From assembly GCA_016183535.1 (NCBI GenBank), contig JACPEK010000003.1, positions 327-64,326 on the forward strand: a stretch of DNA of 64,000 nucleotides, given 5' to 3'. The first letter of the stretch is position 1, and each line of letters starts with the position of its first letter. Origin of the DNA: Candidatus Brennerbacteria bacterium. GTDB taxonomy: Bacteria; Patescibacteriota; Minisyncoccia; UBA6257; GWB1-50-10. The notes under the pieces are model-generated. The model was given only the letters and a program-made list of their open reading frames with translations, was not told the origin of the DNA and made no database searches. Shown in pieces: positions 21,165 through 41,690 of the stretch. Both the position numbers and the translations under genes were made by a program.

Positions 21165-21182
21165 TATTCAAAGGGCTTGATA

Positions 21183-21819: not shown

Positions 21820-21822
21820 GCC

Positions 21823-22257
21823 GTGGAATATTCTATGAGCATTCTTAAGCCAGATTGCATCGAGAGAAACATGGAGGGCACCGTGCGAAGAATGTTAACC
21901 GAACACGGCTTCCTCGTTCTCTTAGAAAAGAGGACTAGACTTTCGTTGGACGATGTATCGTTTATCTATGAGAGATGTGTCGGCGAAGATTTTTTTAAGG
22001 ATTTTGCGGCATTTCTCACGTCTGGCGACGTAGTCGTGTTGGTTCTTTCAAATCCTACGTCCAAAAACGTGATAAAAGATTTGAATAGCCTTGTTGGTCA
22101 TACTAATCCTCAGCTTGCAAAAGACTATACCATCAGAAAGCTTGGAGAAAGCGTTCGCCGGAACCTCGTCCACTCATCAGCAGATCCCCCATCTTTTTGG
22201 AGAGAAGCTTCACGGATGTTTTCTGAGAAGGAGATGTGCGATGCGGGTCTTGAATAA
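21823..22257 (+). CDS. Nucleoside diphosphate kinase-like protein (divergent)
   Basis: ILKPD near the N-terminus and NLVHSSAD (NDK His-active-site region NxxHxSD) near the C-terminus; possible alternative start ATG at 21835. Confidence 0.6.
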   Translation: MEYSMSILKPDCIERNMEGTVRRMLTEHGFLVLLEKRTRLSLDDVSFIYERCVGEDFFKDFAAFLTSGDVVVLVLSNPTSKNVIKDLNSLVGHTNPQLAKDYTIRKLGESVRRNLVHSSADPPSFWREASRMFSEKEMCDAGLE

Positions 22258-22291
22258 AAATTCTTGACCCGCTTTTGTTATAATTTTCCAT

Positions 22292-22570
22292 ATGGATCTA
22301 GAAAGATTTGAAAAAGATTTTCAGAAAAAGTTGAAAAGTTATCCGAAAGTGTGGGGTAAAGAGGAACGTATCCTTCACCTCGTGGAGGAGATTGGAGAAT
22401 TTGCTGAAATCACTCTCCAATATAACGGAAGGAAGGAGCCAAAAAGGAACCTTACTGATGTTAAAATTGCCCTTGCCGACGTTCTTGAAGATGTCCTCGC
22501 CCTTTCAGTCCTCTATGATTTAAAGTTTGAAAAGCTTCTAGAGGAGATTATTAATGAAAAAAATAACTAG
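22292..22570 (+). CDS. MazG-like all-alpha nucleoside triphosphate pyrophosphohydrolase (small)
   Basis: 92 aa; EEIGEFAE metal-binding EExxE motif typical of MazG-like NTP-PPases. Confidence 0.6.
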   Translation: MDLERFEKDFQKKLKSYPKVWGKEERILHLVEEIGEFAEITLQYNGRKEPKRNLTDVKIALADVLEDVLALSVLYDLKFEKLLEEIINEKNN

Positions 22571-23342
22571 AGCCACTTACGCTCTAACACTTACTGAAGC
22601 ATTGCGCCTTCTAAGGAAGGAAACGAGCGTTTTGAGAAATTTAGAGTTCATCGCGTTACTTGGTAGCGTAAAGATCAAAGAACACGTTCCGGGATATAGC
22701 GATTTGGATTTGCTTCTTATACTCAAATCTGACGCTAGTGGAGCTTTAGACGAAAAACTTCTTTTAGAGTTGCAAAAAATATGCGCAGATTTGTCGAAAA
22801 CTTATCGAATAAATATCTCGTTTTTGACTCATACAGAAAAAGAATTGGTCGAGTATGTCGACTACGAATATTTGAAACATTATTCATCGGGTAAATTGCT
22901 TTATGGGAAACCAGAATTATTTTCGAAACTTTTTAAAAGGATAATTTCTAGAAAGAAATCCTATGGTAAGAAGCTAGTGAGAGAAATGTTCAAAAGCATT
23001 GTCCATGCCCGCTTTAATCTTATAAGAAAGTTTGTATCTCTAAACAAATTCAATACTAGAAACTATCGGGATGGTTTACTGAAATTATTTATCGATAATT
23101 TGTTTGAAATAGCTGACTGGAGACTCATCGCCGATGAAATCTGGTGCGTTTCTAAAAAAGAAATTGTGAGTAGAATATTTTCGATCTCAAAAAGTCCACA
23201 CAGGGAAATATTGGAAAGCGCGTATAAATATCGCAGAGACTGGAATCATTTGGTTGTTTCCAGTAAACAAGCCAGATCTTTTTTTATTAGTGGGATTAAA
23301 TTTATCAATGACTGCGTTCGTGATCTAGAGAGACGAACATGA
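22554..23342 (+). CDS. Nucleotidyltransferase (Pol-beta superfamily minimal NTase) domain protein
   Basis: GS-x11-DLD motif (LLGSVKIKEHVPGYSDLDLLLIL) followed by a helical C-terminal domain; overlaps MazG by 17 nt and GT4 by 4 nt. Confidence 0.6.
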   Translation: MKKITRATYALTLTEALRLLRKETSVLRNLEFIALLGSVKIKEHVPGYSDLDLLLILKSDASGALDEKLLLELQKICADLSKTYRINISFLTHTEKELVEYVDYEYLKHYSSGKLLYGKPELFSKLFKRIISRKKSYGKKLVREMFKSIVHARFNLIRKFVSLNKFNTRNYRDGLLKLFIDNLFEIADWRLIADEIWCVSKKEIVSRIFSISKSPHREILESAYKYRRDWNHLVVSSKQARSFFISGIKFINDCVRDLERRT

Positions 23343-24442
23343 GAATTGTCTTTGTTTCAAGGTCGCTCCCATATCTTGGAGGGAGGGAGGTTATAGTGGA
23401 GCGATTAATGGAAAAATTAAAATATAGACATCATATTTTATTACTGACGCCGGATGCCGGACTGAAAAGAAGAGGCATTAAAGTCGTTAACATAAATAAA
23501 AACCTAAAAAGAATAGTTGGGGGGTTTAGGCCTGATATTATAAGTTGCCACACGTTTTATTTTTTTAACCTCGCATATAAGCTATCCCGCGCTCTAGATG
23601 TTCCCCTTATTACAACGTTCCATGGAATGTTTTTGAGACTTTATGGCAAAGATTATCGCTCAATAATCAGAAATATTTGTGAAAAAAGCTTCGTCGTTAC
23701 TGTGGTCTCTAGAAACTATAAGGAGGAGCTCATTCGCGCCCTACGAGTCAGCAGGGCAAAAATTTCTGTAATTAAGAATGGTATACCAAAAGGCGAGGTT
23801 TCTCGGATCAATAAAAATATTTTCAAGTTAAAAAATTATATTCCTTTGGACAAAACTCTCGTCGTTGTCCCAGCTCGAACCGATAAGATTAAAGGACTTG
23901 AGTATCTTATTGGAGTTGCAAAAAAAATAAAGAATGGGGGCTTTTTCTTTTTAGTGTGTTCTCCAATCGGACGCCATAACAATTGGGAGAAGTTATTTAT
24001 GAAAAAACTAGTAGAACTCGCCCCTCCTAAAGATGTAATTGACTTCAGAGAATATGCTCATTCAGATTTACAGAAGCTCTTTCACGTCTGCGATATCTGC
24101 CTTCTCCCCTCGCTGATGGAAGGCGTGTCGATTTCAATTCTTGAAGCAATGGAGAAAGGTTGCATTGTAATCACAACCAATGTTGGAGGAAGCCCAGAAG
24201 TCATAAAGAATGGAGTGAACGGATACTTAATTGAACCGAGAAATGTTAAGGAAATTGTGCATGCACTTGAAAGGTGTACTAAACTCACAAAGTTTACTAG
24301 AGAGAAAATAAAAAACAACGCGAGGAAAACTGTACAAACTAGATTTTCCGAGGAAAAGATGTTAAAATCCTACGAAGATTTATTCCTTAAAGTAATCAAG
24401 AGGCATGAAAATAAGCAACGACGCACAAGCGGTAGTTTATAA
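23339..24442 (+). CDS. Glycosyltransferase family 4 (GT-B, group 1)
   Basis: C-terminal EGVSISILEAMEKGCIVITTNVGGSPEVIKNGVNGYL matches the GT1/GT4 EX7E region. Confidence 0.75.
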   Translation: MRIVFVSRSLPYLGGREVIVERLMEKLKYRHHILLLTPDAGLKRRGIKVVNINKNLKRIVGGFRPDIISCHTFYFFNLAYKLSRALDVPLITTFHGMFLRLYGKDYRSIIRNICEKSFVVTVVSRNYKEELIRALRVSRAKISVIKNGIPKGEVSRINKNIFKLKNYIPLDKTLVVVPARTDKIKGLEYLIGVAKKIKNGGFFFLVCSPIGRHNNWEKLFMKKLVELAPPKDVIDFREYAHSDLQKLFHVCDICLLPSLMEGVSISILEAMEKGCIVITTNVGGSPEVIKNGVNGYLIEPRNVKEIVHALERCTKLTKFTREKIKNNARKTVQTRFSEEKMLKSYEDLFLKVIKRHENKQRRTSGSL

Positions 24443-24839
24443 GCAAGGAGATCAGGGGTTGTTGTTTCTTGTGTTGAAGCGTTTTGATCCGGATAAGAAT
24501 GAGACTCATTATCGACTGATAAAGGGAAGGATTAAAGAAAAAGAAGGTGAAACTTCCGAAGTAGCGGTTTTGAGAGAAATAAAGGAAGAAGCTGGACTTA
24601 CTAAGTTGAGAATCGTTTCAAAAATTCCTAGTTATTCTTATGAAGCGGGCGATGTCAGACATGAAGTAAGCGTCTTTCTAGTAGAAAACACTGCGGAAGA
24701 GTTGGTAAGTGTTGACTCCAGCGAAGAAGGTGCGTTTACCATAGAAGGCGCAACGTGGTTTAGGGTGGAGGATATAGCAACGAAGTTAAACTTCGAGGTA
24801 GAGCGAGCGGCGATTCGGGAGGGATTAAAGCTCGTTTAG
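24405..24839 (+). CDS. Nudix hydrolase
   Basis: Nudix box GRIKEKEGETSEVAVLREIKEEAGL (G-x5-E-x7-REVxEExGU); start overlaps GT4 by 38 nt. Confidence 0.7.
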   Translation: MKISNDAQAVVYKQGDQGLLFLVLKRFDPDKNETHYRLIKGRIKEKEGETSEVAVLREIKEEAGLTKLRIVSKIPSYSYEAGDVRHEVSVFLVENTAEELVSVDSSEEGAFTIEGATWFRVEDIATKLNFEVERAAIREGLKLV

Positions 24840-25859
24840 AATATTTTTAATGGCGTTTTCGCTCGACTGCGAGCGGAATAATTTCACATTCTTTAAGAAA
24901 TTTGGGTGAGAGTTTTCCTCGAATCTTCCCTCGAAATCTATAACAAAAACCCTCTTTAGTAAGCTACTTGCTATCTGTATCAAGCTTCCTTCCGCGCCAA
25001 CTGCGGTGTGACAACTTGCAAGCTCAATTAGTGTTTCTCGATAGCTTAGCCTATTCACAAAGTTTATAACCTTAGGGGAAACCCTGATGGCTCCATTCCC
25101 TTTTCCTAAGAGTGCAACGGCGTTCCTTCTTTTGTTGATTTTATGAACCAAACTCTCTGTTTTCTCAAAACTTTTTGAGGTATCTTCGACACCGGCGATT
25201 ACCCCGATCCTCTTGTGCTTCCTTTTTGAATATATCAACTCCTTTTCATTGGTGGAAAAAAATATTTTTGGCTCGTATTCGTAAAACTTAGTTCCAAGGT
25301 AATGTTCGGAAAGTTTTTGCCACGCTAAAGTATTTCCAAATTTACCAAAGATATCTCGCCACGCTTTAAGATCCCTATCAAACACGATCACTGCCGCTCT
25401 TAAAGAAAAAAGCATCAGCAACGTTTCTCTTAATGTATCTCTTCCAAGGCCAACAAGAATACAGTTCCCCCTTATAAATTGGAATCTACTTCGAAACGAC
25501 CAAATGTGAATCGAATCAATGTTGGGATTATTCTCTAGTATTTGCGCATGTCCTCGAGTAGTTAAAATAGAAACCCGATACCCATCCCTTTTCCAATTTT
25601 CAAAAAGACCTGTCTGGAAAAAAATATCCCCATATCCCTGCTTCAACGGTTCCACAAATAATATGTTCTTTATGCCTCGTAAATTACTCTTTTTGGGGAT
25701 AAACCATATGAACGCGGTGAGTATAATATCCCTTAATACAAAGAACAGCATGAAGATCAAAGCATAGAAAAACCCTTTCTTTTTCCTGATCTTATGGTAC
25801 TTTCTCCTGATCCTTTCCAGATACGTTATGTGCATATGTTCGGTAATATTATCCGACAT
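24825..25859 (-). CDS. Glycosyltransferase family 9-like (heptosyltransferase-like)
   Basis: 344 aa; N-terminal ILFVEPLKQGYGDIFFQTGLFENWKR...NNPNIDSI resembles GT9 ADP-heptose:LPS heptosyltransferases; low-GC. Confidence 0.55.
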   Translation of the reverse strand: MSDNITEHMHITYLERIRRKYHKIRKKKGFFYALIFMLFFVLRDIILTAFIWFIPKKSNLRGIKNILFVEPLKQGYGDIFFQTGLFENWKRDGYRVSILTTRGHAQILENNPNIDSIHIWSFRSRFQFIRGNCILVGLGRDTLRETLLMLFSLRAAVIVFDRDLKAWRDIFGKFGNTLAWQKLSEHYLGTKFYEYEPKIFFSTNEKELIYSKRKHKRIGVIAGVEDTSKSFEKTESLVHKINKRRNAVALLGKGNGAIRVSPKVINFVNRLSYRETLIELASCHTAVGAEGSLIQIASSLLKRVFVIDFEGRFEENSHPNFLKNVKLFRSQSSENAIKNILNEL

Positions 25860-25861
25860 GC

Positions 25862-26134
25862 ATGCTACTTACTCAACATGAATATTCGCAGAACTACCCG
25901 AACCCGTTCAATCCAACGACGACCATCGCCTTCTCGCTTCCCGACCGAAGCCATGTACGCCTCGCGGTGTACAATGCGCTCGGCGAGGAAGTCGCGGCCT
26001 TGGTGGACGAGGAAATCGCGGCCGGCACCCACAAGACCACGTGGGACGCCTCCGGACTCCCGAGCGGCATCTACTTTGTGCGAATGAATGCTCACACATT
26101 CACCGCCACGAAGAAGATGGTGTTACTGAAGTAG
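25862..26134 (+). pseudogene. Orphan T9SS C-terminal sorting domain fragment (5'-truncated cargo gene)
   Basis: 90-aa ORF is essentially only NYPNPFNPTTTIAFSLPDRSHVRLAVYN...GLPSGIYFVRM...KKMVLLK; high-GC, abutting a low-GC gene with a junction near 25885. Confidence 0.7.
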
Positions 26135-26144
26135 ATTTATTTAA

Positions 26145-26178
26145 AGAGCCGATTGCACATGCAATTGGCTCTTTTTTG
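26145..26178 (+). terminator. Rho-independent terminator after the orphan CTD fragment
   Basis: agagccgattgca / tgcaattggctct hairpin followed by TTTTTTG. Confidence 0.65.
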
Positions 26179-26196
26179 CGGGGCACTAATTTTTTA

Positions 26197-26916
26197 TTAT
26201 TCCTCTAAAAACCACCTTGCCGGCAATGGCCCACCGGATTTTTTATAGATATGCTTTACCAAACCAGAAAGAATCATTTTTTTAATCTCAATACTGCTCG
26301 CTTTATAAAAATGTTCAACTTGGTTAGAAAATTTTCTATCCGTTCTTTTTAAAATCTTCCGCATCTCGTTCGGTTGTCTTAAAAACTCTCCGCTTAACTT
26401 AAGGAACAATTCCACAATGTTGGTGATCAATAAATGGCTGTCGATGCCAAATGCCAAATAATCTTTGCCTTTAATGTCACGTTGAACCTCCCCCCAAAAA
26501 TCATCAATGGAGTATTTGTGCATTAAAACCTCTCCATTTTTATATTTAGCTTTTAACTTCAGATTGTCTCTAGCAACTATTTGGATTCTCTCTAAGCTCC
26601 GCCGTCTTTGAAAGAGAATCCTGCCGTGCGCCAGCATATGTGAGGTTATTCTTCTCAGGCCATTTCTATCCTCCTTAAGATATTTTTTAGCTTCCGCCCA
26701 TGTATTAAAAATAATGTCCACACGAACCCCGTTTTTGATAAAATTACTTCTGGAAAATTTACCACTTTGGCTCAAGAGGATATATATGTCAACGTCCGAA
26801 TATGTATCAAATTTATTTCTTGCCACAGATCCGAATAGTAAAATACCCAAGACATTTTTGTCCGGTTTATATTGATCTACTACTTCGCTGCAAATTTTTT
26901 GGATGAACTTCTCCAT
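26197..26916 (-). CDS. Nucleotidyltransferase domain protein (Pol-beta superfamily, paralogous class to 22554..23342)
   Basis: LFGSVARNKFDTYSDVDIYILL GS-x9-DVD NTase motif; 239 aa; low-GC. Confidence 0.65.
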   Translation of the reverse strand: MEKFIQKICSEVVDQYKPDKNVLGILLFGSVARNKFDTYSDVDIYILLSQSGKFSRSNFIKNGVRVDIIFNTWAEAKKYLKEDRNGLRRITSHMLAHGRILFQRRRSLERIQIVARDNLKLKAKYKNGEVLMHKYSIDDFWGEVQRDIKGKDYLAFGIDSHLLITNIVELFLKLSGEFLRQPNEMRKILKRTDRKFSNQVEHFYKASSIEIKKMILSGLVKHIYKKSGGPLPARWFLEE

Positions 26917-26978
26917 AAATAAAAATAGGGCTAAGGTAAGTATAAAACTTTTCCTTAGCCCCGCGAAGTCGTCACCCT

Positions 26979-27080
26979 CTAGTGGCAGTTGCTGGGGCTT
27001 TGACAGGTGCAGAACACCTTTAGCTTCGGCAGTGCCTTGACTTTGAGGATCGGCTGCTGTTTGAGCTTCGTCTTCTGCAT
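26979..27080 (-). CDS. Putative RiPP precursor peptide (33 aa, Lys-rich leader, C-terminal C-x-C-x6-C)
   Basis: GGAAAGGAGG RBS, then ATG 5 nt after the rSAM stop codon; MQKTKLKQQPILKVKALPKLKVFCTCQSPSNCH; same strand and immediately downstream of the rSAM/SPASM enzyme. Confidence 0.55.
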   Translation of the reverse strand: MQKTKLKQQPILKVKALPKLKVFCTCQSPSNCH

Positions 27081-27085
27081 AGCAT

Positions 27086-28525
27086 TCACCTCCTTTCCGT
27101 TGCAGGTTGGAGAAGTTCCGGCCCTGACGCCGTCGCTTCCCGCAGTTGTTCTCGAAGAATCTCGTGGGTCATACGGCGGTAGAAGTCGCACATTCGTTCG
27201 ATCTTGACGGTTTTCGTCGCCCGAGCGAACTCTTGCGTAATGTTGCAACCACCACCGCACTGCCCTTCGATCATGCACCCTTTACACATTTCCATTACTC
27301 CGGTGAGATGATCTCTCACAAAGCGATGATAGGCGGTGCCTGACGCATGAAACGACTGGATTTCCGAGAGACTCCCGAGTTGGGTCGTGCTGTAGCCACA
27401 TCCGTAGATGTTTCCGGACGGGCCTACGCACATGCTGTTGCCGCGGACTGCGCCGCAGAACGCGACACGGCTTTCGAGCGTTGATCCGTTAAGATTCTCG
27501 GCTGGCCGTGACCAGAAGCCGGGAACATCAACGCCTCGTGCCGCCGCGTAGCGCCGAATCCGCATCAGCTTTGCGACGACATCTTCAATCGGAATTTCCA
27601 CCATATCGACAACGTCGATATCAATCCTGACGTTCTTCATGCCGCGGGTTACTGCCCAGTCGACAATCGACTCGTCAAGTTCGTGAAAATTCTTTTCGGT
27701 GACTGTCACCGCGATGCCATCGAGTGGATACCCCGCTTGCGCCAACGCATCGAATCCACGCATTATTTGGGAGAATGTACCGCCCCCAGACTTCGTCAAG
27801 CGGACGTGATCATTTCCCTCGCGCAAGCCGTCGAGACTAGAAGCAATCTCGACGCGATGTTCTTTGAGAATCGCGGCGATATCTGGCGTAATGAGTGACG
27901 CGTTCGTGTTGATCGAGAAGTGAAACTCGAATTCCGAACCATAGGCGATACGGCAGTATTCAAACATCTGCTTGATGACTGGCCACGCCAACAGCGGTTC
28001 GCCTCCACCAAAGTTGATCTCGGCGACACGCTTTCCATGACCGCGAAGAATCTCGAGATACCGATCCACCGTTTCCTTGGCTGTGTCATACCGCATAAAC
28101 TTTTTGGGGTTGTTGATGCGGTCAGAAGTTTCCAAGTTGTTAAAGTGGATGCAATAGGTGCAACGGAAGTTGCACGCCTCACTCATGATGAGCTCGAGAT
28201 AATCAATCAGCGAACCGCTGATAATTTCCTTTTCCCCTTCTCGCATCCGCTCTTCGAGAAATGCTCGGTCATCGAAACCCTCTGGAACAAGGAAATGACA
28301 CTGCAAAAATTCCTCAATTGCTTCCCGATTTTCGTCGGTCAACTCATTGCCGACCTGTGAACGAACCGTTATCGGCTCGGAGAACGACTCAAGAAATTCG
28401 AGCGTCTCAACGGGAACAACTCTTGGGTATCCAAACAGTGAGTGCCAAATCACCGCAGAGTCGCCATCTAGAACGGCCTGCACGAACGGCGACTTCGTGT
28501 AAGCGACATTAAGGTTAAGTGCCAT
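27086..28525 (-). CDS. Radical SAM / SPASM-domain peptide-modifying enzyme
   Basis: CNFRCTYC (CxxxCxxC) radical-SAM cluster motif near residue 125; Cys-rich SPASM region CGAVRGNSMCVGPSGNIYGCGYS...CKGCMIEGQCGGGCN; about 100-aa N-terminal extension that could be an RRE-like domain. Confidence 0.8.
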   Translation of the reverse strand: MALNLNVAYTKSPFVQAVLDGDSAVIWHSLFGYPRVVPVETLEFLESFSEPITVRSQVGNELTDENREAIEEFLQCHFLVPEGFDDRAFLEERMREGEKEIISGSLIDYLELIMSEACNFRCTYCIHFNNLETSDRINNPKKFMRYDTAKETVDRYLEILRGHGKRVAEINFGGGEPLLAWPVIKQMFEYCRIAYGSEFEFHFSINTNASLITPDIAAILKEHRVEIASSLDGLREGNDHVRLTKSGGGTFSQIMRGFDALAQAGYPLDGIAVTVTEKNFHELDESIVDWAVTRGMKNVRIDIDVVDMVEIPIEDVVAKLMRIRRYAAARGVDVPGFWSRPAENLNGSTLESRVAFCGAVRGNSMCVGPSGNIYGCGYSTTQLGSLSEIQSFHASGTAYHRFVRDHLTGVMEMCKGCMIEGQCGGGCNITQEFARATKTVKIERMCDFYRRMTHEILREQLREATASGPELLQPATERR

Positions 28526-28648
28526 TGCAGGCTCCTTTCTTTGTTTTTTAAACGATTCAACAGATTTCTTTGTTATCTACAGAATGACAATTATTATAAT
28601 ACTTGTCAAATCGCATAATGTTTCTCCATTATCAAGATATCTTTACGG

Positions 28649-28727
28649 CATCTACTTCTATCGCTTGGAGACCGATTCGCCAGCTGGCGGATTCACGGCC
28701 GTAAAGAAGATGATCCTACTAAAGTAG
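28649..28727 (+). pseudogene. Remnant of a T9SS CTD 3' end (..GIYFYRLETDSPAGGFTAVKKMILLK*)
   Basis: In-frame match to the last about 25 aa of CTD copies, with an extra SPAGG coded by the palindrome CGCCAGCTGGCG; followed by terminator copy 2. Confidence 0.6.
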
Positions 28728-28737
28728 CTTTATTAAA

Positions 28738-28776
28738 GGGCTTGATACAAATGTATCAAGCCCTTTTGCGTTTTGT
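28738..28776 (+). terminator. Rho-independent terminator, repeat copy 2
   Basis: gggcttgatacaaatgtatcaagccc plus TTTTGCGTTTTG; near-identical to copies 1 and 3. Confidence 0.8.
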
Positions 28777-28801
28777 TTGGATGTAGTACTATGAAATCGA
28801 A

Positions 28802-28993
28802 ATGGCCACCGCAACTTTTCTCCAAAAGCTGAATACGGAATTGAAACGCATCGTTGCGCACGCGGTGCTTGATACCCTTACTGACCCCGATCTCGGCGCA
28901 GAACTCACCCTGCATGCCAAGCGACGTCTGCGCGCGGCCGCTCGCGGACGAAGCGTTGCCACGCTCGCGGAGATAAAAAAGAAACATTACTGA
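28802..28993 (+). CDS. Putative type II antitoxin (addiction-module component, TIGR02574-like) paired with the RelE/ParE toxin
   Basis: 63 aa; stop overlaps the toxin start (ATGA); position and size typical of an antitoxin. Confidence 0.5.
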   Translation: MATATFLQKLNTELKRIVAHAVLDTLTDPDLGAELTLHAKRRLRAAARGRSVATLAEIKKKHY

Positions 28994-29265
28994 TGGGCAG
29001 ATGGTCGCTCGGGTTCACGCGGAGTGCTGAGGAGGACCTCGCGCAATTGGATCGGCCGGTCCGTCGCCGCATTATCGACAAACTCGAATGGCTATCGGCA
29101 CACTTCGATGGAATTATCCCCTCGGCGCTACATGCGGAGTTCCGCGAGTTCTACAAACTTCGGGTGGGCGACTGGCGTGTCGTTTATAAAATCGAGTGGC
29201 GCAAATACTCCATCATGATTTGCTACATTGACCGCCGCGACCGGGTATACAAAAAAGGAAGGTAG
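28993..29265 (+). CDS. RelE/ParE family type II toxin
   Basis: 90 aa; YKLRVGDWRVVYKIE...IMICYIDRRDRVY matches the RelE/ParE core. Confidence 0.7.
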   Translation: MGRWSLGFTRSAEEDLAQLDRPVRRRIIDKLEWLSAHFDGIIPSALHAEFREFYKLRVGDWRVVYKIEWRKYSIMICYIDRRDRVYKKGR

Positions 29266-29267
29266 TT

Positions 29268-29597
29268 ATAGACACCGCTCTCAAACGGCTTGCCACCGTT
29301 CGTGTCGAGGAGGGTGACTTCTCGCCGCTTCCTACCCACTACTCACTGGGACAAAACTACCCGAACCCATTCAATCCCACGACCACGATCACCTTCTCAC
29401 TTCCCGACCGAAGCCACGTACGCCTCACGGTGTACAATGCGATTGGTCAGGAAGTCGTGAAGTTGGTTGACGAGGAGGTCTCCGCAGGCACCCACAAAAC
29501 AACGTGGGACGCCTCCGGCCTCCCGAGCGGCATCTATTTCTATCGTTTGGAAACGAAGCAATTCATCCAAACGAGGAAGACTATGTTCATGAAGTAG
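29268..29597 (+). pseudogene. 5'-truncated T9SS cargo gene fragment (linker plus complete CTD)
   Basis: Reading frame open from 29268 with no start codon; ..HYSLGQNYPNPFNPTTTITFSLPDRSHVRLTVYNAIGQEVVKLVDEEVSAGTHKTTWDASGLPSGIYFYRLETKQFIQTRKTMFMK*; followed by a hairpin terminator at 29611-29645. Confidence 0.65.
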
Positions 29598-29746
29598 ATT
29601 TATTGATTCGAAAGCCCTGTACAATACGCATGGGGCTTTTTGTGGCGCTGTTCGATAACTGTTGAAAAGCTTTGATTATGCGAGCACGGGCAAATCAGGG
29701 AATCAAGTAAAATGGAGGGTTATCGAACGGCCCCTTTTTGATTGAT

Positions 29747-29775
29747 TTGACAAACTGGCACCCGCACACTTTAAT
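29747..29775 (+). promoter_or_regulatory. Sigma70-like promoter TTGACA-17-TTTAAT upstream of the DUF397 gene
   Basis: -35 at 29747-29752, 17-nt spacer, -10 at 29770-29775; AAGGAGGTG RBS at about 29817. Confidence 0.45.
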
Positions 29776-29834
29776 GTAACTAGGTTATTTCCGAGAGGAA
29801 AATTTAAAATCTAGATAAGGAGGTGAGAAAGACG

Positions 29835-30065
29835 ATGGTTCAAGCTGATGACAAAAAAAAGCTCCGGCAAATCAAATTCAGGGATAGCGATTTTCACAAA
29901 GCTAGCGGTACCCTGATGAGGAGAATCTGCGTTATGGTCGCACATAAAAAAGGCGCCATAGCAGTGCGCGATTCAAAAGATGCATTGAAGAAAACGCTCA
30001 TTTTCAACGAAGCAGAATGGAGCGTTTTCATCAAGGGCGTCAAGGCCGGCGAGTTTGATATATAA
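29835..30065 (+). CDS. DUF397 domain protein
   Basis: CVMVAHKKGAIAVRDSKDALKKTLIFNEAEWSVFIKGVKAGEFD closely matches the DUF397 consensus (..VRDSKDP.GP.L.F...EW.AF...VKAGEFD); alternative GTG start at 29823. Confidence 0.7.
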   Translation: MVQADDKKKLRQIKFRDSDFHKASGTLMRRICVMVAHKKGAIAVRDSKDALKKTLIFNEAEWSVFIKGVKAGEFDI

Positions 30066-30147
30066 AGCGAACTCGTGAAAAGTAAGTCGAGAAGAGGGTA
30101 ATATAGTCTTGTTACCCTCTTTTTTATGTTAAAATTATTAAATATTC

Positions 30148-30903
30148 ATGGAAAAAAATCTAAAAATAAAACTTTCAAAAGAGTTTTCACTATACGGGAA
30201 ATTTAGTGGTTCTTTTAATCAGCCATTATTTATTATTGCACACGGGTTTTCGGGGAATATGGATGAAGAATTTTATCGTTTAGCTACTTATTGGTTTGGA
30301 AAGCATGGGTTTTCAACATTCCGGTTTAATTTTTATGGTCATCAAAAAGATGCTCGGCAGCTTATGAATTGTACTCTTAAAACACATAGCACTGACTTTG
30401 ACACAATTGTTCGTTATTTTAGAAAGCGTGGGGTGAGGAAAGTATTTGTTGTAGGACACAGTTTTGGTGGATTGGTAATTTTTTGTTCTCGCAATCAAGA
30501 TTTTGACGGTGCGGTGCTCTGGGATCCATCTTACAAAATTTCATTTACAAAGACGATGTTTGGTTTTCCGGGCGGGAAATATATAAAAGAGATAAATGGT
30601 TATCTTATGAAATGGGGGGTAAATTTGATTATTGGAAAAGTAATGGCAAAAGAAATTGATTCACTTCAATGGGATTCAATAGCAAAAAATTTTAAAGTGC
30701 CTTTTAAAATAATTCTTGCTGGAAAAGGTGCGCTTAAAGGCACAAAAAAATATCTAAATAATGCAAAGGTGGAGAAAGATTTGATGATTGTAGAAGGAGC
30801 AACACATTATTTTAATGATCGAGATGGGATGCAAGAGAAAGTTTTTAAATCTTCTGAAGAATGGTTTAGAAAATTTATAAAAATTCGTCGTCATTATAAT
30901 TAG
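30148..30903 (+). CDS. Alpha/beta-fold hydrolase (serine esterase-like)
   Basis: 251 aa; nucleophile elbow VVGHSFGG; low-GC. Confidence 0.65.
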   Translation: MEKNLKIKLSKEFSLYGKFSGSFNQPLFIIAHGFSGNMDEEFYRLATYWFGKHGFSTFRFNFYGHQKDARQLMNCTLKTHSTDFDTIVRYFRKRGVRKVFVVGHSFGGLVIFCSRNQDFDGAVLWDPSYKISFTKTMFGFPGGKYIKEINGYLMKWGVNLIIGKVMAKEIDSLQWDSIAKNFKVPFKIILAGKGALKGTKKYLNNAKVEKDLMIVEGATHYFNDRDGMQEKVFKSSEEWFRKFIKIRRHYN

Positions 30904-31065
30904 GTAATTAGGGAGTTTTGTAACCATATGGTAGTAAAATACCCATATGGCACAAGACGAAAGAATGTTTTCGGTTGCGCGGCCAACTTTTTGAGGGGGA
31001 GAAAGTGTATTTTCTGTGGGTCGTTCAAGGTATGCAAGACGAAGCGCGACTATGCGCGGCGCCGC

Positions 31066-31529
31066 CACAAGACCTGTGGAAAACTATATTCTACCGCGAC
31101 GACCACTACTTTAATGACGAGAAGGAATGGACGCAAATCGTCGCCGATACCGCCTACACAGTGAAGGGAGAGTCTCTTCTCGTTGGTACTTCAAGCGCCC
31201 TCTACCGCGTGGATGGGGCGATCGATACGCCGGTGTCGGTCGAGGAGGATCCTGGCATAATCCCCTTCTCGTTTGGGTTGTCGCAAAACTACCCGAACCC
31301 GTTCAATCCGAGTACCACGATCACCTTCTCACTTCCCGACCGAAGCCACGTACGCCTCACGGTGTACAATGCGATTGGTCAGGAAGTCGTGAAGTTGGTT
31401 GACGAGGAGGTCTCCGCAGGCACCCACAAAACAACGTGGGACGCCACTGGATTCCCGAGCGGCGTCTACTTCGCCCGCCTCGAAACCAAAAGTTTCGTCG
31501 CCACGAGGAAGATGATCCTACTAAAGTAG
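31066..31529 (+). pseudogene. Internally deleted paralog fragment of the BNR/T9SS cargo gene (C-terminal propeller piece, linker, CTD)
   Basis: ..LWKTIFYRDDHYFNDEKEWTQIVADTAYTVKGESLLVGTSSALYRVDGAIDTPVSVEEDPGIIPFSF..CTD aligns to residues about 165-175 and about 290-432 of the 19866..21164 product; no plausible N-terminus or signal peptide. Confidence 0.65.
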
Positions 31530-31539
31530 CTTTATCAAA

Positions 31540-31574
31540 GGGCTTGATACATTCGTATCAAGCCCTTTTGCGTT
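31540..31574 (+). terminator. Rho-independent terminator, repeat copy 3
   Basis: gggcttgatacattcgtatcaagccc plus TTTTGCGTT. Confidence 0.8.
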
Positions 31575-31593
31575 AGAATCGCCTCGTTTGATT

Positions 31594-31833
31594 TCATCTA
31601 TAAGTTTTCTCCGATCGCCTCTCCACCGCGAGAACAAATATTTTTTTATCGTCCAAAAGTCGGAAAATAACCCGAAGGTCTCCCGACCTCACGCGAAACA
31701 AGTCCTGCCGGCCCTTGAGCTTCTTTATGTCCAACCAAATAATTTTCCCCTCTTTCAGAGAGTTTAAAATCGTTGCTATTTTCTTTCTTTCTTTTTCCGA
31801 AAGCTTTTCAAGCTGTTTGGAAACGCGATCCAT
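31594..31833 (-). CDS. RelE/ParE family type II toxin
   Basis: 79 aa; LFRVRSGDLRVIFRLLDDKKIFVLAVERRSEKTYR RelE-fold core; 4 nt downstream of the antitoxin. Confidence 0.7.
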   Translation of the reverse strand: MDRVSKQLEKLSEKERKKIATILNSLKEGKIIWLDIKKLKGRQDLFRVRSGDLRVIFRLLDDKKIFVLAVERRSEKTYR

Positions 31834-31836
31834 ACC

Positions 31837-32049
31837 CTAAAGGCGGGAAAGTAAATCGTTTATATTCACTCCCCCTTTGCTTATTTTGGTGAAATCAATA
31901 ACCTCCTCCCAATGGTCGTCTTCGACTTGAGAAACGCGGAAGATCGGCTTGGAGCGACGCATCACCACAATGGGGATGCCTCTCCGCGCCGCCCGCGCGT
32001 ATTTTTCCAGATTCATCCTGAATTCCTTTAGACCAATGACGCTTTCCAT
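31837..32049 (-). CDS. Phd/YefM family type II antitoxin
   Basis: 70 aa; IGLKEFRMNLEKYARAARRGIPIVVMRRSKPIF matches the Phd/YefM N-terminal fold. Confidence 0.7.
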   Translation of the reverse strand: MESVIGLKEFRMNLEKYARAARRGIPIVVMRRSKPIFRVSQVEDDHWEEVIDFTKISKGGVNINDLLSRL

Positions 32050-32085
32050 GCTTTAAAAGATAATCTAAAGATAATCTAAAGTCAA

Positions 32086-32268
32086 GCAATATTCGAATCC
32101 TCGGACATAATAGATACGTCGAGGTCGGCTGTCTGCGTCTCCCCCGCCTTCGCAGTCTGGAGCTCATATTTATAGACACCACTCTCGAACGGCCGGCCGC
32201 CGTTCGTGTCGAAAAAAAATTTGTCACCGGCAGTGCGGTCAAGATTTGGATTTAAAACACCCCCCTAT
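32086..32268. repeat. About 180-bp relic copy (about 90% identical) of an internal segment of the large FN3 surface-protein gene (matches 19349-19533)
   Basis: Direct sequence comparison: aatcctcggacataatagatacgtcgag...cagtgcggtcaagatttggattta shared by both loci; the copy has no intact ORF context. Confidence 0.75.
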
Positions 32269-32283
32269 CCGAACCCACACAAA

Positions 32284-33303
32284 CTACCGGGCCGCGAGAG
32301 CGCGGACAACATGACGGAGGAGCATTGCCGCATACCCATACTCGTTGTCGTACCACGAGAGTATCTTCACTAAATCACCGTCCACCACTTTGGTGAACGA
32401 GAGATCCACAATCGCGCCGTAGGGTTCGCCGACGATATCGGACGACACGAGCTGTTCTTCCGACACCCCAAGAATTCCTTTCCACCGCGGCAACTTGGCG
32501 GCGCGCCGGAAAATGCTGTTTACCTCTTCCACGGAGGTTTTCCGTGTCGCGAGAAACGTGATATCGGCGAGGGAACCAGACACGACCGGTACCCGCATCG
32601 CGATACCGTCGAATTTCCCGGCAAGCGGCGGAAACGCGCGGGTCACCGCGATCGCCGCACCGGTCGTCGAGGGCGTGATATTCGCCGCCGCCGCCCGCCC
32701 GCGACGAAAATCTTTTCCTTTCACGGGGCCATCCACTAAATTCTGGGTGGCGGTGTAGCCATGAACCGTGTTCAGAACGGCTTTCCTGATGCCTGGCTTT
32801 TCCGCCATCACGGCAATGACCGGCGCGGCGGCGTTCGTGGTGCACGAACCGTTCGAAGTTAAAATCACTTTCTTCAACTCGCCCTCGTTCACCCCTACCA
32901 AAACCGTTTTCCCCTCGACGCCATCCTCGTCTTTCGCCGGCGCGGTAATAACCACGCGCTTCGCGCCTGCCGCGAGATGTTCTTTTGCTTTCTCGTACGA
33001 TTCAAAAACACCCGTCGCTTCCACCACGAGATCCACTTTCATTTTCTTCCATGGTAATTTCGCCGGATCTTTTTCCTGCAACAATTTGATCCGTTTCCCG
33101 GCGACCACAAGCACCCCTTGATTCGCTTTGACCTCGCGCGTATAACGGCCATAGACCGTGTCGTACCGCAAGAGGTAGGAAAGGTTCGCGGCGTCGCCGA
33201 GATCGTTGATCGCCACGATCTCAAACTCCTTCGCACCAAATCCGAGGCGAAAGAACAATCTCCCTATCCTCCCAAAACCGTTGATGGCGATCTTTTTCTT
33301 CAT
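32284..33303 (-). CDS. gap: Glyceraldehyde-3-phosphate dehydrogenase, type I
   Basis: INGFGRIGR NAD-binding motif and catalytic SNGSCTTN; start taken at MKKKIAINGFGRIGR (ATG at 33303), with a possibly spurious upstream extension to 33372. Confidence 0.9.
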   Translation of the reverse strand: MKKKIAINGFGRIGRLFFRLGFGAKEFEIVAINDLGDAANLSYLLRYDTVYGRYTREVKANQGVLVVAGKRIKLLQEKDPAKLPWKKMKVDLVVEATGVFESYEKAKEHLAAGAKRVVITAPAKDEDGVEGKTVLVGVNEGELKKVILTSNGSCTTNAAAPVIAVMAEKPGIRKAVLNTVHGYTATQNLVDGPVKGKDFRRGRAAAANITPSTTGAAIAVTRAFPPLAGKFDGIAMRVPVVSGSLADITFLATRKTSVEEVNSIFRRAAKLPRWKGILGVSEEQLVSSDIVGEPYGAIVDLSFTKVVDGDLVKILSWYDNEYGYAAMLLRHVVRALAAR

Positions 33304-33902: not shown

Positions 33903-35159
33903 TCAGGGTTCGTAACTTTGACCTTTTGGAATCTCCGCCCAGGAAATTTCGCTCGCCTTCGCGCCGTCCGGATCGTAAAGCATCACGGCGTTATTTACAT
34001 ATGCGAGCGTGTACGATTTCGGCCACACCACGTCCGCCGGCGGCGAACCCGCATAGTCGGGGTGCGCGAGGAGAAGGGAGCCTCCCGCGGAAATTGTTTT
34101 CCCTTCCAAGCGGCTCGCCGCGACGAGCGCCGACTCGGCGCCGGAGGACGATCTCTTTCTCACGCTCCAACCCGTAAGATCAGCCGTGCGCGATCCGGTG
34201 TTGTAAAGTTTTACGAAATCCCAGTTCGCGGCGCCGTCTTTTCCCGCCATCACCTCACTTATCACGATTGTGCCTTGCGCGGACGGCAGAGGCGTCGGCG
34301 CTTCTGAAGCGGTAGAGGTTGGAGTGTCAGTCGCCGCCGAAGAAGTCATAGTTGTTGCGGTGAGTGGGGGCGCGGGAACCACAGGAGGCGCCGAGTTCTC
34401 TGCCTTCGGTGTTCCGCCGACCTTAGATGACGTGTACCACCCGCGCGTCGCGAGGTTCCGCTCCATCGTGCGGCGCGCGGCGTTATTTCCTGCCGGCCAT
34501 CCGCCAGCTGGCGGAGGCAACGTCAAAACTTCATCCATCACCTCGCACTTTTCATCGAAGAGCCTAAGGCCTTCGTTCTCATTCTTCAAATTTCCCGCGT
34601 ACTGGAAATCCGCGCGCACCTTTCGGACGCTATCCGCATTTCTTGCAAGAAGCAGAAATTGGTTTGCGAGAATCGCCGCACCTTTCGGAAAGGTAAATTG
34701 TATCTGCTCGTCCTTATCCACCAAGCTCCGCCCTTCCATACTCGCCGCCATCTTTCCTATATTGGCAATTTCTATCCATTCATACTGCGCACCTTCTTCC
34801 GTGCCCATCCATGCGATTTCACTGATCAACACCGTGTCTCCCTTTGCTGTTTTGCCACTTTCATATTCACACGCCGTGGGATGATCGATATTCCCATTCG
34901 TGTTATTCGCGCCTTTCGTATTCCAAAGCGGAAATGTCTCTCCGCCAGCTGGCGGATTATTCTCACGTGCGCCTCCGAAAAGCGACGCGGTGATTGATGC
35001 GCCGCTCCCGCCAAAGCGCCCAAACGCATACGCGCCCCCTATCAATACAAACACCGCGGCAATCGCGGCCGCGCTCCACACGACCGACCTCCGCGTCGGA
35101 TCGTTTCGCTTTTCGTACGTTTCTACCTCCTTGTCAGAGATAAAAACTTCTTCCATCAC
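33903..35159 (-). CDS. Membrane-anchored protein with two lamin-tail-domain (LTD) repeats
   Basis: 418 aa; N-terminal TM; LISEIAWMGTEE..EWIEIANIG and VISEVMAGKDGAANWDFVKLYNTG..GWSV LTD signatures; contains two copies of the CCGCCAGCTGGCGG palindrome coding PPAGG. Confidence 0.6.
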   Translation of the reverse strand: MMEEVFISDKEVETYEKRNDPTRRSVVWSAAAIAAVFVLIGGAYAFGRFGGSGASITASLFGGARENNPPAGGETFPLWNTKGANNTNGNIDHPTACEYESGKTAKGDTVLISEIAWMGTEEGAQYEWIEIANIGKMAASMEGRSLVDKDEQIQFTFPKGAAILANQFLLLARNADSVRKVRADFQYAGNLKNENEGLRLFDEKCEVMDEVLTLPPPAGGWPAGNNAARRTMERNLATRGWYTSSKVGGTPKAENSAPPVVPAPPLTATTMTSSAATDTPTSTASEAPTPLPSAQGTIVISEVMAGKDGAANWDFVKLYNTGSRTADLTGWSVRKRSSSGAESALVAASRLEGKTISAGGSLLLAHPDYAGSPPADVVWPKSYTLAYVNNAVMLYDPDGAKASEISWAEIPKGQSYEP

Positions 35160-39938: not shown

Positions 39939-41690
39939 TTATTTCACCAACATCATCTTCCTCGTTTGGAAGAATTGCTTCGTTTCCAAGCGAGAGAAGT
40001 AGATGCCGGAGGGGAGGCCGGAGGCATCCCACGTGGTTTTATAGGTGCCGGCCGAGACCTCCTCGTCAACTAACTTTGCAACTTCCTGACCAATCGCGTT
40101 GTACACCGTGAGACGTACATAGTTTCGTTCGGGGAGCGCAAACTCAATTGTGGTCGAGGGATTGAACGGGTTGGGGTAATTTTGCTTGAGGACAAATTCG
40201 GTTGGAACCGAATTGTCTTCAACCCCCGTCGCGACATCGAATGTCCGCGCGGTATCAACATTCGACGACGCCGATTCGTTTCCGTTCCGATCAGTAAGAC
40301 GCGCCTCGAACCAGTAGACGGTACCGGGCAAGAGACCTGAAATTTCTACCGAGGATACGCCGGGCGCCACTCCGACGGTCCGCGCCCAATACGTCAAAAA
40401 ATTCGACGATTTGCTCCACCGCACGGTGCCGGTCATCGCGTCGCTTGATGTGGGAATCGTAAACCTCACCTTTACCTGGGTCCGTGAAATCGCGGTGGCC
40501 ACCAAATCGGTAATCGCCTGCGGGGATGTCGCATCAGGATACGTCCGCGCCGTCATGGTGCCGGTGTAGACAGATGTGCCCCTTGTGTTGATTGAGCGCG
40601 CGCGTCCCGCGTAGACTGTTCCGGCACGCAAGCCGCTGAACACCGCTTCTCCCCTTCCTGAAAAGCCCGAAACGGGGACGATGATAGCGGCATAGCGGTC
40701 AAGAAAAACACTGCCTTCGGCAATTTGCACTTCGGTCTGGGTCGCCCCGCCGCCGTGCGCGAAGGTCGCGACAATCATTGACTCCGACGTGGCGGTGAAA
40801 GAGAAATCACGCGGAACTTCTGGAGTCCCGGTCGGTTCCGCAAGAGTGCGCGCGGTATCAGGAACCGAAAACGCGGATTGATTGCCCGCAGAATCCCGCG
40901 CCGCGGCACGCAGATAGTAGACGGTGCCCGGTGCAAGATTCAAAAACACGGCTCCCGCCGTGCCGCCCGGAGTTGCCGGCACTACCACTTGTTGTGCCGT
41001 GTCAGAAAACGCGGCGCTCATCCCCAATTGGAAGAGGATGCTCGCGGCATCAAGGTCGCTCGGCGCTTTTGCCTGCGCCTCGGCGGAAGCACTCGACACC
41101 GCGGTCAGTACCACATCCGTCGGAACCGCAGGAGCAGTGACATCAGCTCCCGTTTCACCGTCTTCGAGTACCACCCCGCCGGCGATCAGTTGATCGAAGA
41201 ATACCGCGAGCGTTCCCCGCTCGCTGGTCAGGTAGGAAAACCACAACACTACCTGATTCACCTCGCCCGCCACAGACGGAAATCGCAGAGTGTAGGTTTG
41301 ATAACCTCCGCTCGCGGACACCGTGTCGAGATTAGAGTTCACGACCGGCGCGCCATCCTTGAAAAAACTCGCCGCCACGCGCGCGCGGCGCGGAGCAATC
41401 CATAAAGGTACCCGCAGATCAATACTTATGCTTGCGGGCGCTTGCATGGACGCGATGCTCTTGATCACCACGAGGTACCGGCTCACGCCGTCTTTCGTGG
41501 TTGTCATCTGAACCCGCCACGCGCCGTTTCCCGCCGAGGCGGAGTCGGTACGGGCAAGCGCGTATCCATCAAGGAACGATGCGGTAATTACGGTCGGAAC
41601 CGGATAGACAGAATCCGCCACCGCGAATTTCTGCGGATAGCTCTCCCGCGCCAGAACGGCGAGGAGAAGCAACGGTAATAACCTCTTCAT
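39939..41690 (-). CDS. Secreted FN3-repeat protein with T9SS-type C-terminal sorting domain
   Basis: Start MKRLLPLLLLAVLA (ATG at 41690 with AGGAGGAAAAATG RBS); FN3 signatures; C-terminal NYPNPFNPSTTIEFALPERNYVRLTVYN..GLPSGIYFSRLETKQFFQTRKMMLVK. Confidence 0.8.
   Translation of the reverse strand: MKRLLPLLLLAVLARESYPQKFAVADSVYPVPTVITASFLDGYALARTDSASAGNGAWRVQMTTTKDGVSRYLVVIKSIASMQAPASISIDLRVPLWIAPRRARVAASFFKDGAPVVNSNLDTVSASGGYQTYTLRFPSVAGEVNQVVLWFSYLTSERGTLAVFFDQLIAGGVVLEDGETGADVTAPAVPTDVVLTAVSSASAEAQAKAPSDLDAASILFQLGMSAAFSDTAQQVVVPATPGGTAGAVFLNLAPGTVYYLRAAARDSAGNQSAFSVPDTARTLAEPTGTPEVPRDFSFTATSESMIVATFAHGGGATQTEVQIAEGSVFLDRYAAIIVPVSGFSGRGEAVFSGLRAGTVYAGRARSINTRGTSVYTGTMTARTYPDATSPQAITDLVATAISRTQVKVRFTIPTSSDAMTGTVRWSKSSNFLTYWARTVGVAPGVSSVEISGLLPGTVYWFEARLTDRNGNESASSNVDTARTFDVATGVEDNSVPTEFVLKQNYPNPFNPSTTIEFALPERNYVRLTVYNAIGQEVAKLVDEEVSAGTYKTTWDASGLPSGIYFSRLETKQFFQTRKMMLVK

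Follow-up and report, generated by a model that had tools for sequence, protein, structure and literature searches.

A 16-nucleotide palindrome, PE-1, within unrelated genes of Patescibacteria and other bacteria: a probable ultra-small hairpin insertion element

Why should the same short palindrome be read in the same frame in unrelated genes of one bacterial contig? The question is raised by a stretch of 64,000 nucleotides from a Candidatus Brennerbacteria bacterium (contig JACPEK010000003.1, positions 327 to 64,326; hereafter the window, whose positions are counted from its first letter). In this window a 16-nt perfect palindrome, TCCGCCAGCTGGCGGA, called PE-1 below, occurs exactly at 34500-34515 and 34941-34956. 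Both copies lie in a minus-strand gene (33903-35156) coding for a membrane-anchored protein with two lamin-tail domains (LTD; Pfam LTD E = 2.6e-29), and both are read on the minus strand, the first as (L)PPPAGG(W) (site 2) and the second as NNPPAGGE in the N-terminal linker (site 1). The best explanation of the evidence is that PE-1 is a discrete, ultra-small hairpin insertion element, and we consider this reading probable.

Three further copies were found in the window. A TT variant, TTCGCCAGCTGGCGGA, is read on the plus strand as DSPAGGF at 28676-28691, within a truncated relic of a Por_Secre_tail sorting domain of the type IX secretion system (T9SS) type (28640-28727, plus strand, YGIYFYRLETDSPAGGFTAVKKMILLK*), which is followed by a shared terminator-like hairpin. 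Two decayed copies lie near the 3' end of gatA (1-1457, minus strand, extending past the window start), at 36-51 (plus strand TCCGCCAGCCGGCGAA, sense TTCGCCGGCTGGCGGA, GSPAGGL) and 60-75 (plus strand TCCGCCAACTGGCGAA, sense TTCGCCAGTTGGCGGA, NSPVGGE). The window was thus hit twice in the LTD gene, once in the sorting-domain relic and twice in gatA, where the copies are old. A sixth match, TCCACCAGCCGGCGGA at 6630-6645, falls in the inter-domain linker of a prepilin peptidase in the frame SAGWW; with two mismatches it may be a decayed copy or a chance match. A preliminary description of this DNA had reported one 14- to 16-mer three times, always in the Pro-Ala-Gly-Gly frame, and two near-palindromes at 33-66 in gatA. 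The frame is confirmed at all three places, where P/S-P-A-G-G is read, the gatA copies giving SPAGG and SPVGG. The two repeats of the LTD gene are indeed exact, with coordinates corrected by 3-5 nt and a unit of 16 rather than 14 nt; the third copy carries one mismatch, and the gatA near-palindromes are present as the two 16-nt units given above.

These copies are far beyond chance. The inner 14-mer CCGCCAGCTGGCGG has two exact matches (34501-34514 and 34942-34955) for 0.00 expected from 100 dinucleotide shuffles, and seven matches with at most two mismatches (shuffles: mean 0.33, maximum 3), among them both gatA copies and TCGCCAGCTGGCGG at 28677-28690, which differs at one position. The peptide PAGG occurs three times in the genes of the window, each time inside PE-1. 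It is written with rare codons, CCA making up 12% of Pro codons and GCT 7% of Ala codons, so that the probability of CCA GCT GGC GGA for a given PAGG is about 0.0007; codon usage therefore does not explain PE-1.

As a structure, PE-1 folds into a 6-bp stem, TCCGCC/GGCGGA, closed by a 4-nt loop (-5.9 kcal/mol as single-stranded DNA, -10.2 kcal/mol as RNA). With the canonical loop, AGCT, the unit is a perfect palindrome. Over 100 distinct copies, the flanks had no complementarity beyond the 16 nt. In an unbiased sample of related loci (see below), the ends of PE-type hairpins were TC/GA, TT/GA or TC/AA in every case. PE-1 is therefore a unit with sharp boundaries, and its stem is what defines it. 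In the TT variants, the sense strand kept a G-U wobble in all five cases.

Comparison with orthologs indicates that the copies were gained as inserted DNA. Among 24 aligned LTD proteins, site 2 reads LPPPAGGWPAG against PK----WPAG in 11 of 12 close orthologs, i.e. four additional residues, and this insertion is common only to the window and to one aligned ortholog (P0002, contig L002). Site 1 adds about 4-5 residues found in none of the aligned orthologs (11-12), in a linker that is variable. These orthologs come from Brennerbacteria/Jorgensenbacteria-like Patescibacteria. In an AlphaFold2 model of the LTD protein, site 1 is within a disordered linker (residues 50-91, pLDDT < 50) and site 2 in a loop between the strands 206-211 and 229-233, at a local dip of confidence. 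The sorting-domain relic has 30 nt between conserved anchors that are 18 nt apart in five intact tails, i.e. +12 nt or four residues (ETD[SPAG]GF versus ETKQF/ETKSF). In GatA, the decayed copy at 36-51 belongs to an extra 13-residue segment, SPVGGESGSPAGG, placed before the conserved LP[IV]G.Q strand (here LPIAFQ) and without counterpart in the solved GatA structures of Aquifex, S. aureus and P. aeruginosa.

Contigs fetched from three related organisms carry PE-1 at other places. L002 has an exact copy at the position orthologous to LTD site 2, a decayed copy near the LTD N-terminus, and a second exact copy in a PGA_cap gene, read as RQLA (AAVRQLADAQ versus AA----ELAQ, +12 nt). In L003 a TT variant lies near the LTD C-terminus (AENSPAGGGTW versus AEI----NGAW, +12 nt). 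None was found in L004 and L005. The same DNA thus stands at positions that differ between lineages, with a net gain of 12 nt each time, which shows independent insertions; the PAGG frame is not obligatory. The LTD genes of the window and L002 are not sister sequences, and their tree is too star-like to choose between one and two insertions at site 2. They are 45-48% identical at 4-fold degenerate sites, and the probability that the five such sites within PE-1 stayed identical by drift is about 0.02. Over nine coding sites the net gain of 12 nt is clean at six, the ambiguous ones being LTD site 1, the N-terminal site of L002 and the cysteinyl-tRNA synthetase (CysRS) site when compared with solved structures. 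For PAGG-frame copies, xxT^GGA is the reconstructed junction, where a Gly codon gained the 12 nt CCGCCAGCTGGC on its 5' side; replacement of about 4 nt by the 16-mer, guided by microhomology at its ends, is equally compatible with this junction.

CysRS offers a case of recurrence at a single codon boundary. Among 120 homologs retrieved with a Saccharibacteria CysRS as query, about 114 have a loop of uniform length, WKFSxP----xEKRDMEW, without the additional residues. Three lineages (P0121-123, P0129 and P0161) have PPAG at the same place, exactly four residues longer than close homologs, and in their DNA the exact 16-mer follows an xAT codon and ends in the Gly codon GGA. These lineages are 66-71% identical to each other, their nearest neighbours are insertion-free, and their common ancestor spans all 120 homologs. 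In the closest relative of the query (P0124, 81% identity) the site is empty and reads AGC CCT GCA GGT. In a fourth lineage, P0146, this T^GGA junction is occupied by another perfect palindrome, TCCGCTGGCCAGCGGA. The codons flanking the three copies differ at many synonymous and non-synonymous positions, and because the immediate flanks differ, homologous patch transfer between the lineages appears unlikely. The simplest account, judging from these alignments, would be repeated insertion of the 12-nt CCGCCAGCTGGC 5' of a pre-existing GGA codon, with copies surviving selection in the permissive loop alone.

Other conserved enzymes show the same gain. MetK has RKN[PPAG]GL versus RKDG/RKTG, and TsaD has PMLN[PPAG]GKNY versus PMLD----DDSY, each exactly four residues longer than its homologs. 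The Gly conserved in MetK (N-G) and in CysRS (P/A-G) fits an insertion before an existing Gly codon. Further hosts, named from their N-terminal sequence only, are polynucleotide phosphorylase, RecJ and glutamate dehydrogenase. At low-GC loci, 25 of 30 copies in long open reading frames (ORFs; at least 250 residues) are read as PPAGG, three as RQLA and two as SASWR.

PE-1 is also found in RNA genes. Three Bacteroidota have it in their RNase P RNA, as helix P12 in Hanamia, as P3 and P12 alike in a Cyclobacteriaceae metagenome-assembled genome (MAG), and as another hairpin in Roseivirgaceae. In the Cyclobacteriaceae gene (L090:4274-4680) the two helices are the identical 16-nt sequence. The tmRNA of a Spechtbacterales contains one copy. 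Four of 16 copies lie within 150 nt of a tRNA gene for 1.06 expected (P = 0.016), and some are inside partial tRNA duplicates, which supply pairs with and without PE-1: GGTAGA[GCAACTGC]CTTTT becomes GGTAGA[PE-1]CTTTT in a fragment of L071, and CTACC[ATT]GAGCT becomes CTACC[PE-1]GAGCT in one of L077. A repeat family of Mucilaginibacter flavidus likewise has members of both kinds (GGAACGA[AGCAACCT]CTACG versus GGAACGA[PE-1]CTACG). Many intergenic copies sit on top of longer hairpins or terminator-like stems. Searching Rfam recovered no family for the PE-1 hairpin itself, the matches being the host RNAs.

To what extent is PE-1 confined to the relatives of the window? A collection with one genome per prokaryotic species was scanned with the pattern TYCGCCAGCTGGCGGA, giving at least 120 stretches, among which at least 77 loci are below 50% GC and contain at least 89 perfect copies. 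Among the matches listed, most belong to low-GC Patescibacteria of many classes, Bacteroidota, Cloacimonadota, Elusimicrobiota and others, and the Bacteroidota carriers include the isolate M. flavidus RT5R15. As an internal control, two one-mismatch neighbours of the palindrome, to which this pattern was open as well, occurred about three times against the 89 perfect copies, in the low-GC loci and among the matches listed. The high-GC matches look like chance matches in coding DNA. In a viral collection the total counts were not enriched (55 stretches for PE-1, 45 and 91 for the controls), PE-1 being enriched in the low-GC bins only (10 for 2 and 1 of the controls). Two Bacteroidota MAGs carry PE-1 within longer tandem or dispersed repeats, with units of about 57 nt in L010 (3240-3310) and of about 404 nt in L024 (4975-8000), where six copies each sit on top of an ATCCTT/AAGGAT stem.

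The unbiased sample, of 965 kb with a mean GC of 39%, was made up of 80 metagenome loci that encode LTD relatives. It contained no exact PE-1, four one-mismatch copies and six two-mismatch copies, for no match to any of 300 composition-matched control palindromes. In eight of these ten copies the stem TCCGCC/GGCGGA is intact and the central bases differ (loops AGCC, AGTT, GGCT, AGTC and TGAT). In a census of all 4096 6-bp stems with a 4-nt loop over 1.06 Mb of related genomes, CCTGCC ranked first and TCCGCC second, both ahead of stems made of A and T only. A third GC-rich hairpin, TCCGGC-CTGC-GCCGGA, was seen five times in the unbiased sample of the candidate phyla radiation (CPR) (L352-L431), its stem occurring six times at two loci.

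Several statements of the preliminary description can be judged from these data. The +12 nt, four-residue insertion in the sorting-domain relic holds against the five other tails, as does the reading of the gatA segment, absent from the solved structures, as an insertion relative to canonical GatA. That the PAGG residues come from inserted DNA and not from a conserved peptide is supported by the LTD (11 of 12 orthologs), MetK, TsaD and CysRS (about 114 of 120) homologs that do without them, and a frequency above expectation by the window shuffles, by the second rank of the TCCGCC stem among 4096 and by the 300 empty controls. The Pro-Ala-Gly-Gly frame is a strong bias rather than a rule, given the RQLA reading of the L002 PGA_cap copy. 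The expectation of a lineage-specific insertion had to be abandoned: the identical 16-mer occurs across many phyla. The CAGCTG restriction or methylation site, for which the preliminary description advised a check, is not what is conserved, since variants retain the stem but differ in the four bases of the loop; a PvuII (CAGCTG) or AluI (AGCT) site is not supported on these grounds, the loops AGCC, AGTT, GGCT, AGTC and ACGT all being found. In the window, CAGCTG occurs three times for 7.5 expected, always within PE-1 and never outside. Other 6-nt palindromes are avoided there too (GGGCCC 2 for 16.5, GTCGAC 7 for 23.3), so that avoidance of CAGCTG is not decisive. The commonest decay of PE-1 is CAGCTG to CAGTTG or CAACTG, CAGTTG being seen in the gatA copy at 60-75; by its sequence, this pattern would fit damage at methylated cytosines.

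A second palindrome, the 20-nt PE-2 (CCTGCCTGCCGGCAGGCAGG), behaves similarly. It too is sharply bounded. The window has one copy (60621-60640), which gives GLPAGRQG on the minus strand of an 88-residue ORF; PE-2 was also found at eight unrelated low-GC loci and in the unbiased CPR sample. A subfamily, CCTGCCTACCGGCAGGCAGG, with one wobble-compatible (G-T) change, occurs at five loci. In the viral collection, PE-2 is present in 35 stretches with 42 copies, compared with 45-91 stretches for the 16-mers scanned there, a 20-mer being expected by chance about 256-fold more rarely than a 16-mer. Some of the viral copies lie in the D-loop or the variable loop of phage tRNA genes. Individual sites include a tRNA D-loop (L348), variable loops (L318, L341) and a position adjoining a tRNA-like D-arm (L025:4045). 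The palindrome TCCGCCACGTGGCGGA, tried as a control, is not a clean one, as it consists of the PE-1 stem with an ACGT loop and forms a related family in phages. It is read mostly as PPRGG, and the homologous sites of related phages (L135, L138, L173 and L179) carry PE-1. In a phage group of about 50% GC (L181-L225) it occurs several times per contig and is often extended to ATAAC...GTTAT.

How might such a unit move? In the mechanism that we propose, a trans-acting enzyme would recognise the hairpin and copy PE-1, following the logic of REP/RAYT or HUH-type systems. The copy would enter DNA that is exposed as a single strand or prone to form hairpins, its ends sharing 3-4 nt of microhomology with the target; the excess of copies in stable-RNA genes and at hairpin tips points to such targets. 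Selection would then keep the harmless copies, in the PPAGG frame within surface loops and linkers, at the tips of dispensable RNA helices and in terminator-like hairpins. The sole candidate partner would be a small GIY-YIG nuclease of YhbQ type, which is near a few copies only: among the fetched loci, three carry such a gene and in each it is 7-121 nt from PE-1. More tentatively, PE-1 and PE-2 could be 'nano-elements', i.e. the smallest mobile DNA known, with a 12-nt payload that completes the 16-nt hairpin of PE-1, site-specific insertion at (A)T^GGA-like targets and an enzyme acting in trans and spread horizontally. They would be active across Patescibacteria, the FCB group and their phages, where they would have given housekeeping enzymes PPAGG loops time and again and remade helices in the genes for RNase P RNA, tmRNA and tRNA; we hold this extension to be possible, though somewhat less likely than not. 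The copies of the window are the local part of a far wider phenomenon, apparently undescribed, and there is a substantial chance that the mechanism of mobilisation is new.

A number of results weigh against mobility. No mobilising enzyme was identified, and none is encoded in the window, where Pfam searches of the low-GC island described below and of the other genes recovered no transposase, nuclease or methyltransferase. About 95% of the PE-1 copies have no GIY-YIG neighbour, and there is none in the window or its relatives. No gene family recurs beside PE-1 except an ABC transporter at six Bacteroidota and other loci, which probably reflects synteny with the RNase P RNA gene. Neither target-site duplications nor terminal inverted repeats beyond the hairpin were found; direct repeats of at least 7 nt flank 15-20% of copies for 7-10% of control positions, and the copies concerned are in tandem repeats. 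The before-and-after pairs outside coding sequence give net changes of +8, +8 and +13, which differ, so that the rule of +12 may partly reflect selection for the reading frame. No presence/absence polymorphism was found between near-identical strains, and ongoing mobility is thus deduced from phylogenetic scatter only. PE-1 is sparse (about one copy in 20-100 kb), the counts of the genome collection stand without a clean control palindrome, and the perfect conservation of the sequence could reflect function instead. As a separate observation on the flanks, A-rich tandem repeats of 6-8 nt border PE-1 or PE-2 on both sides in L026, L043, L046, L064, L101, L106 and L123, and (ATTGAAA)x3 is found at 4885-4905 of the window in a pilin-like gene.

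Function is the alternative that survives best. PE-1 might be a nucleic-acid motif, such as the binding site of a conserved dimeric protein, an uptake-type signal of naturally competent CPR bacteria or an RNA hairpin with a stabilising role. Selection or molecular drive would preserve it, and it would spread by conversion rather than transposition, as has been proposed for the highly iterated palindrome 1 (HIP1) or the DNA uptake and uptake signal sequences (DUS/USS). In its favour, the 16-mer does not vary where synonymous sites are saturated, decayed copies are few, the TT variants retain their wobble pair, PE-1 forms P3, P12 and terminator-like stems, and the pilin and prepilin peptidase encoded in the window make competence-type machinery plausible. 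Selection on a motif would however have to account for a gain always made by an increase in length and not by substitution, and for gatA copies that decayed without consequence. Spread by conversion is difficult to reconcile with the CysRS copies, whose flanks diverge within a few nucleotides. That CPR, Bacteroidota, Cloacimonadota and phages should all share a single uptake or binding specificity is difficult to believe, and the density is 10- to 100-fold below that of DUS/USS or HIP1. We therefore regard a functional motif as unlikely, though as a serious competitor.

PE-1 could also be the scar or boundary of a larger mobile element, either a GIY-YIG cassette with tRNA-fragment repeats or an unassembled insertion sequence, left by excision, abortive homing or break repair. 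The proximity of the three GIY-YIG ORFs to PE-1 speaks for such an origin, a fourth, truncated ORF being present in L071. In L077 the ORF lies between two 5' fragments of tRNA-Asn, each with PE-1 in its D-loop, and the non-coding pairs resemble replacements of 3-8 nt, as expected from repair. These GIY-YIG genes (L077:2180-2560, L071:3986-4120 and L068:3812-4117) stand beside tRNA genes, and their flanks, with partial tRNA 5' copies or 'GTCATTGCGAGGAACGA...' repeats bearing PE-1, resemble mobile cassettes. A scar origin would leave the great majority of copies, including those of the window and its relatives, without the gene it invokes, and identity at 16 of 16 positions everywhere is not what a scar should give. 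Split half-sites, considered as the ends of a larger element, were unsupported: they exceed controls only about 2-fold, are mostly decayed full copies and give no split-end signal. A scar thus seems improbable.

Local template switching, or snap-back synthesis on a short quasi-palindrome such as CCNGG or a P-G codon pair, by which the same context would produce PE-1 convergently, is very improbable. Perfect palindromes without spacer are the signature of this process, palindromic loop alternatives (AGCT, ACGT) occur at homologous phage sites, and the T and GGA ends may derive from the target; the inner 10-12 nt are nevertheless identical despite unrelated flanks and phyla, which local templating cannot yield, and a template for the inserted bases within the flanks is already largely excluded. 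Readings by chance, by codon usage, as a conserved PAGG peptide or as an artefact of assembly or library can be dismissed almost entirely, even though a PAGG-like IPAGGF is native to LTD domains and the sequences are mostly metagenome assemblies: shuffles expect no copy, the codons are rare, orthologs do without the residues, copies occur in the independent assemblies L001, L002 and L003 and in the isolate genome L068, neither frame bias nor decayed copies nor orthologous sharing is explicable by an artefact, and a bare 16-nt insert would disrupt every ORF.

If PE-1 is indeed an insertion element, a hairpin of 12-16 nt with a defined sequence would, in very distant bacteria, recurrently insert four-residue loops into essential enzymes and replace helices of RNase P RNA and tmRNA. 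Part of the many small insertions noted in proteins and RNAs of CPR genomes would then have a concrete mechanism, and PE-1 would be a cross-phylum marker for a DNA-handling activity. The occurrence of PE-1 in the cultured isolate M. flavidus RT5R15 makes it directly testable. For annotation, PPAGG, RQLA and SASWR peptides, odd tRNA fragments and short P3/P12 helices become recognisable as element-derived.

Other features of the window surround the sorting-domain relic. A low-GC island (19800-32300; 43-45% versus 55-57% GC) interrupts the gene order from GAPDH to PGA_cap seen in L002-L004, with 170-nt direct repeats of 89% identity at 19352-19521 and 32089-32258. Its cargo includes Por_Secre_tail proteins, a radical-SAM protein, nucleotidyltransferases, NDK and a glycosyltransferase. 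DNA coding for the Por_Secre_tail, of about 250 nt, is present in five copies of 67-87% identity (20919-21170, 25889-26140, 29352-29603, 31284-31535 and, on the minus strand, 39940-40184). A 32-nt terminator-like hairpin, AAAGGGCTTGATAC....GTATCAAGCCCTTT, occurs at 21170-21201, 28735-28766 and 31537-31568 (91-97% identity), each time directly past the stop codon of a sorting-domain tail. Sorting domains of T9SS type are unusual for a Patescibacteria genome; one was also found in L004.

To which known system does PE-1 come closest? Literature searches gave no description of the motif; string matches were lacZ/pUC primers containing CGCCAGCTGGCGTAAT, and keyword matches concerned only fungal mitochondrial GC palindromes (e.g. 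PMC8811140). Unlike miniature inverted-repeat transposable elements, PE-1 has no consistent flanking direct repeat or target-site duplication. DUS/USS are specific to a species or family and occur at about 1 per kb, in contrast to the low density and cross-phylum distribution of PE-1. Repetitive extragenic palindromes (REP) and REPINs are imperfect palindromes of 20-40 nt with a GTAG-type tail, extragenic and species-specific, and co-occur with a gene for a REP-associated tyrosine transposase (RAYT). PE-1 shares with them the hairpin stem and the dispersed copies, and by analogy might share an enzyme acting in trans; it differs by its perfect 16 nt, by the lack of a conserved flank and by its many copies inside ORFs and RNA genes. 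No RAYT or TnpA(Y1) gene was found near PE-1 copies in the 8-64 kb inspected per genome.

Small dispersed repeats of cyanobacteria, including HIP1, are 8-27 nt long, are restricted to their lineage and lie inside genes and in helix P12 of RNase P RNA; HIP1 spreads by point substitution and reaches about 1 per kb. Very small dispersed repeats of heterocystous cyanobacteria were reportedly described by Elhai et al. in 2008. PE-1 resembles these repeats by its positions inside genes and in P12, and is distinguished from HIP1 by its gain through insertion of 12 nt, its density of about 1 per 20-100 kb and its presence across phyla.

The resemblance to Rickettsia palindromic elements (RPE) and palindromic amphipathic repeat coding elements (PARCEL) drawn in the preliminary description stands as an analogy; membership fails, as those elements are about ten times longer. 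PARCEL, known from Mollicutes, are in-frame palindromic coding repeats of about 100-150 nt that encode amphipathic segments; PE-1 is far shorter and occurs in other taxa, while palindromic coding that preserves the frame is common to both. RPE are about 100-150 bp long, form a long imperfect hairpin, are confined to Rickettsia, diverge in sequence, fall in surface loops and encode no transposase. In the account attributed to Ogata et al. (2000), palindromic repeats are said to lie in frame in unrelated protein and RNA genes of Rickettsia. PE-1 is similarly inserted in frame in ORFs relative to orthologs (LTD, PGA_cap, MetK, TsaD and CysRS, with extra residues in GatA); at 16 nt and four added residues, identical across phyla, it is too short for homology to RPE to be recognised.

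In behaviour, PE-1 also matches the mobile GC clusters and double-hairpin elements of fungal mitochondria and the PstI palindromes of Neurospora. These are specific to organelles and 30-60 bp long, with sequences particular to each class and target duplications in several classes, and are found between genes, in variable loops of rRNA and in frame in var1, sometimes by mobile endonuclease genes. PE-1 departs from them by its bacterial hosts, its 16 nt and the lack of a duplication. The match is one of behaviour only: in both cases, a GC-rich palindrome in AT-rich genomes occupies intergenic, RNA and in-frame sites.

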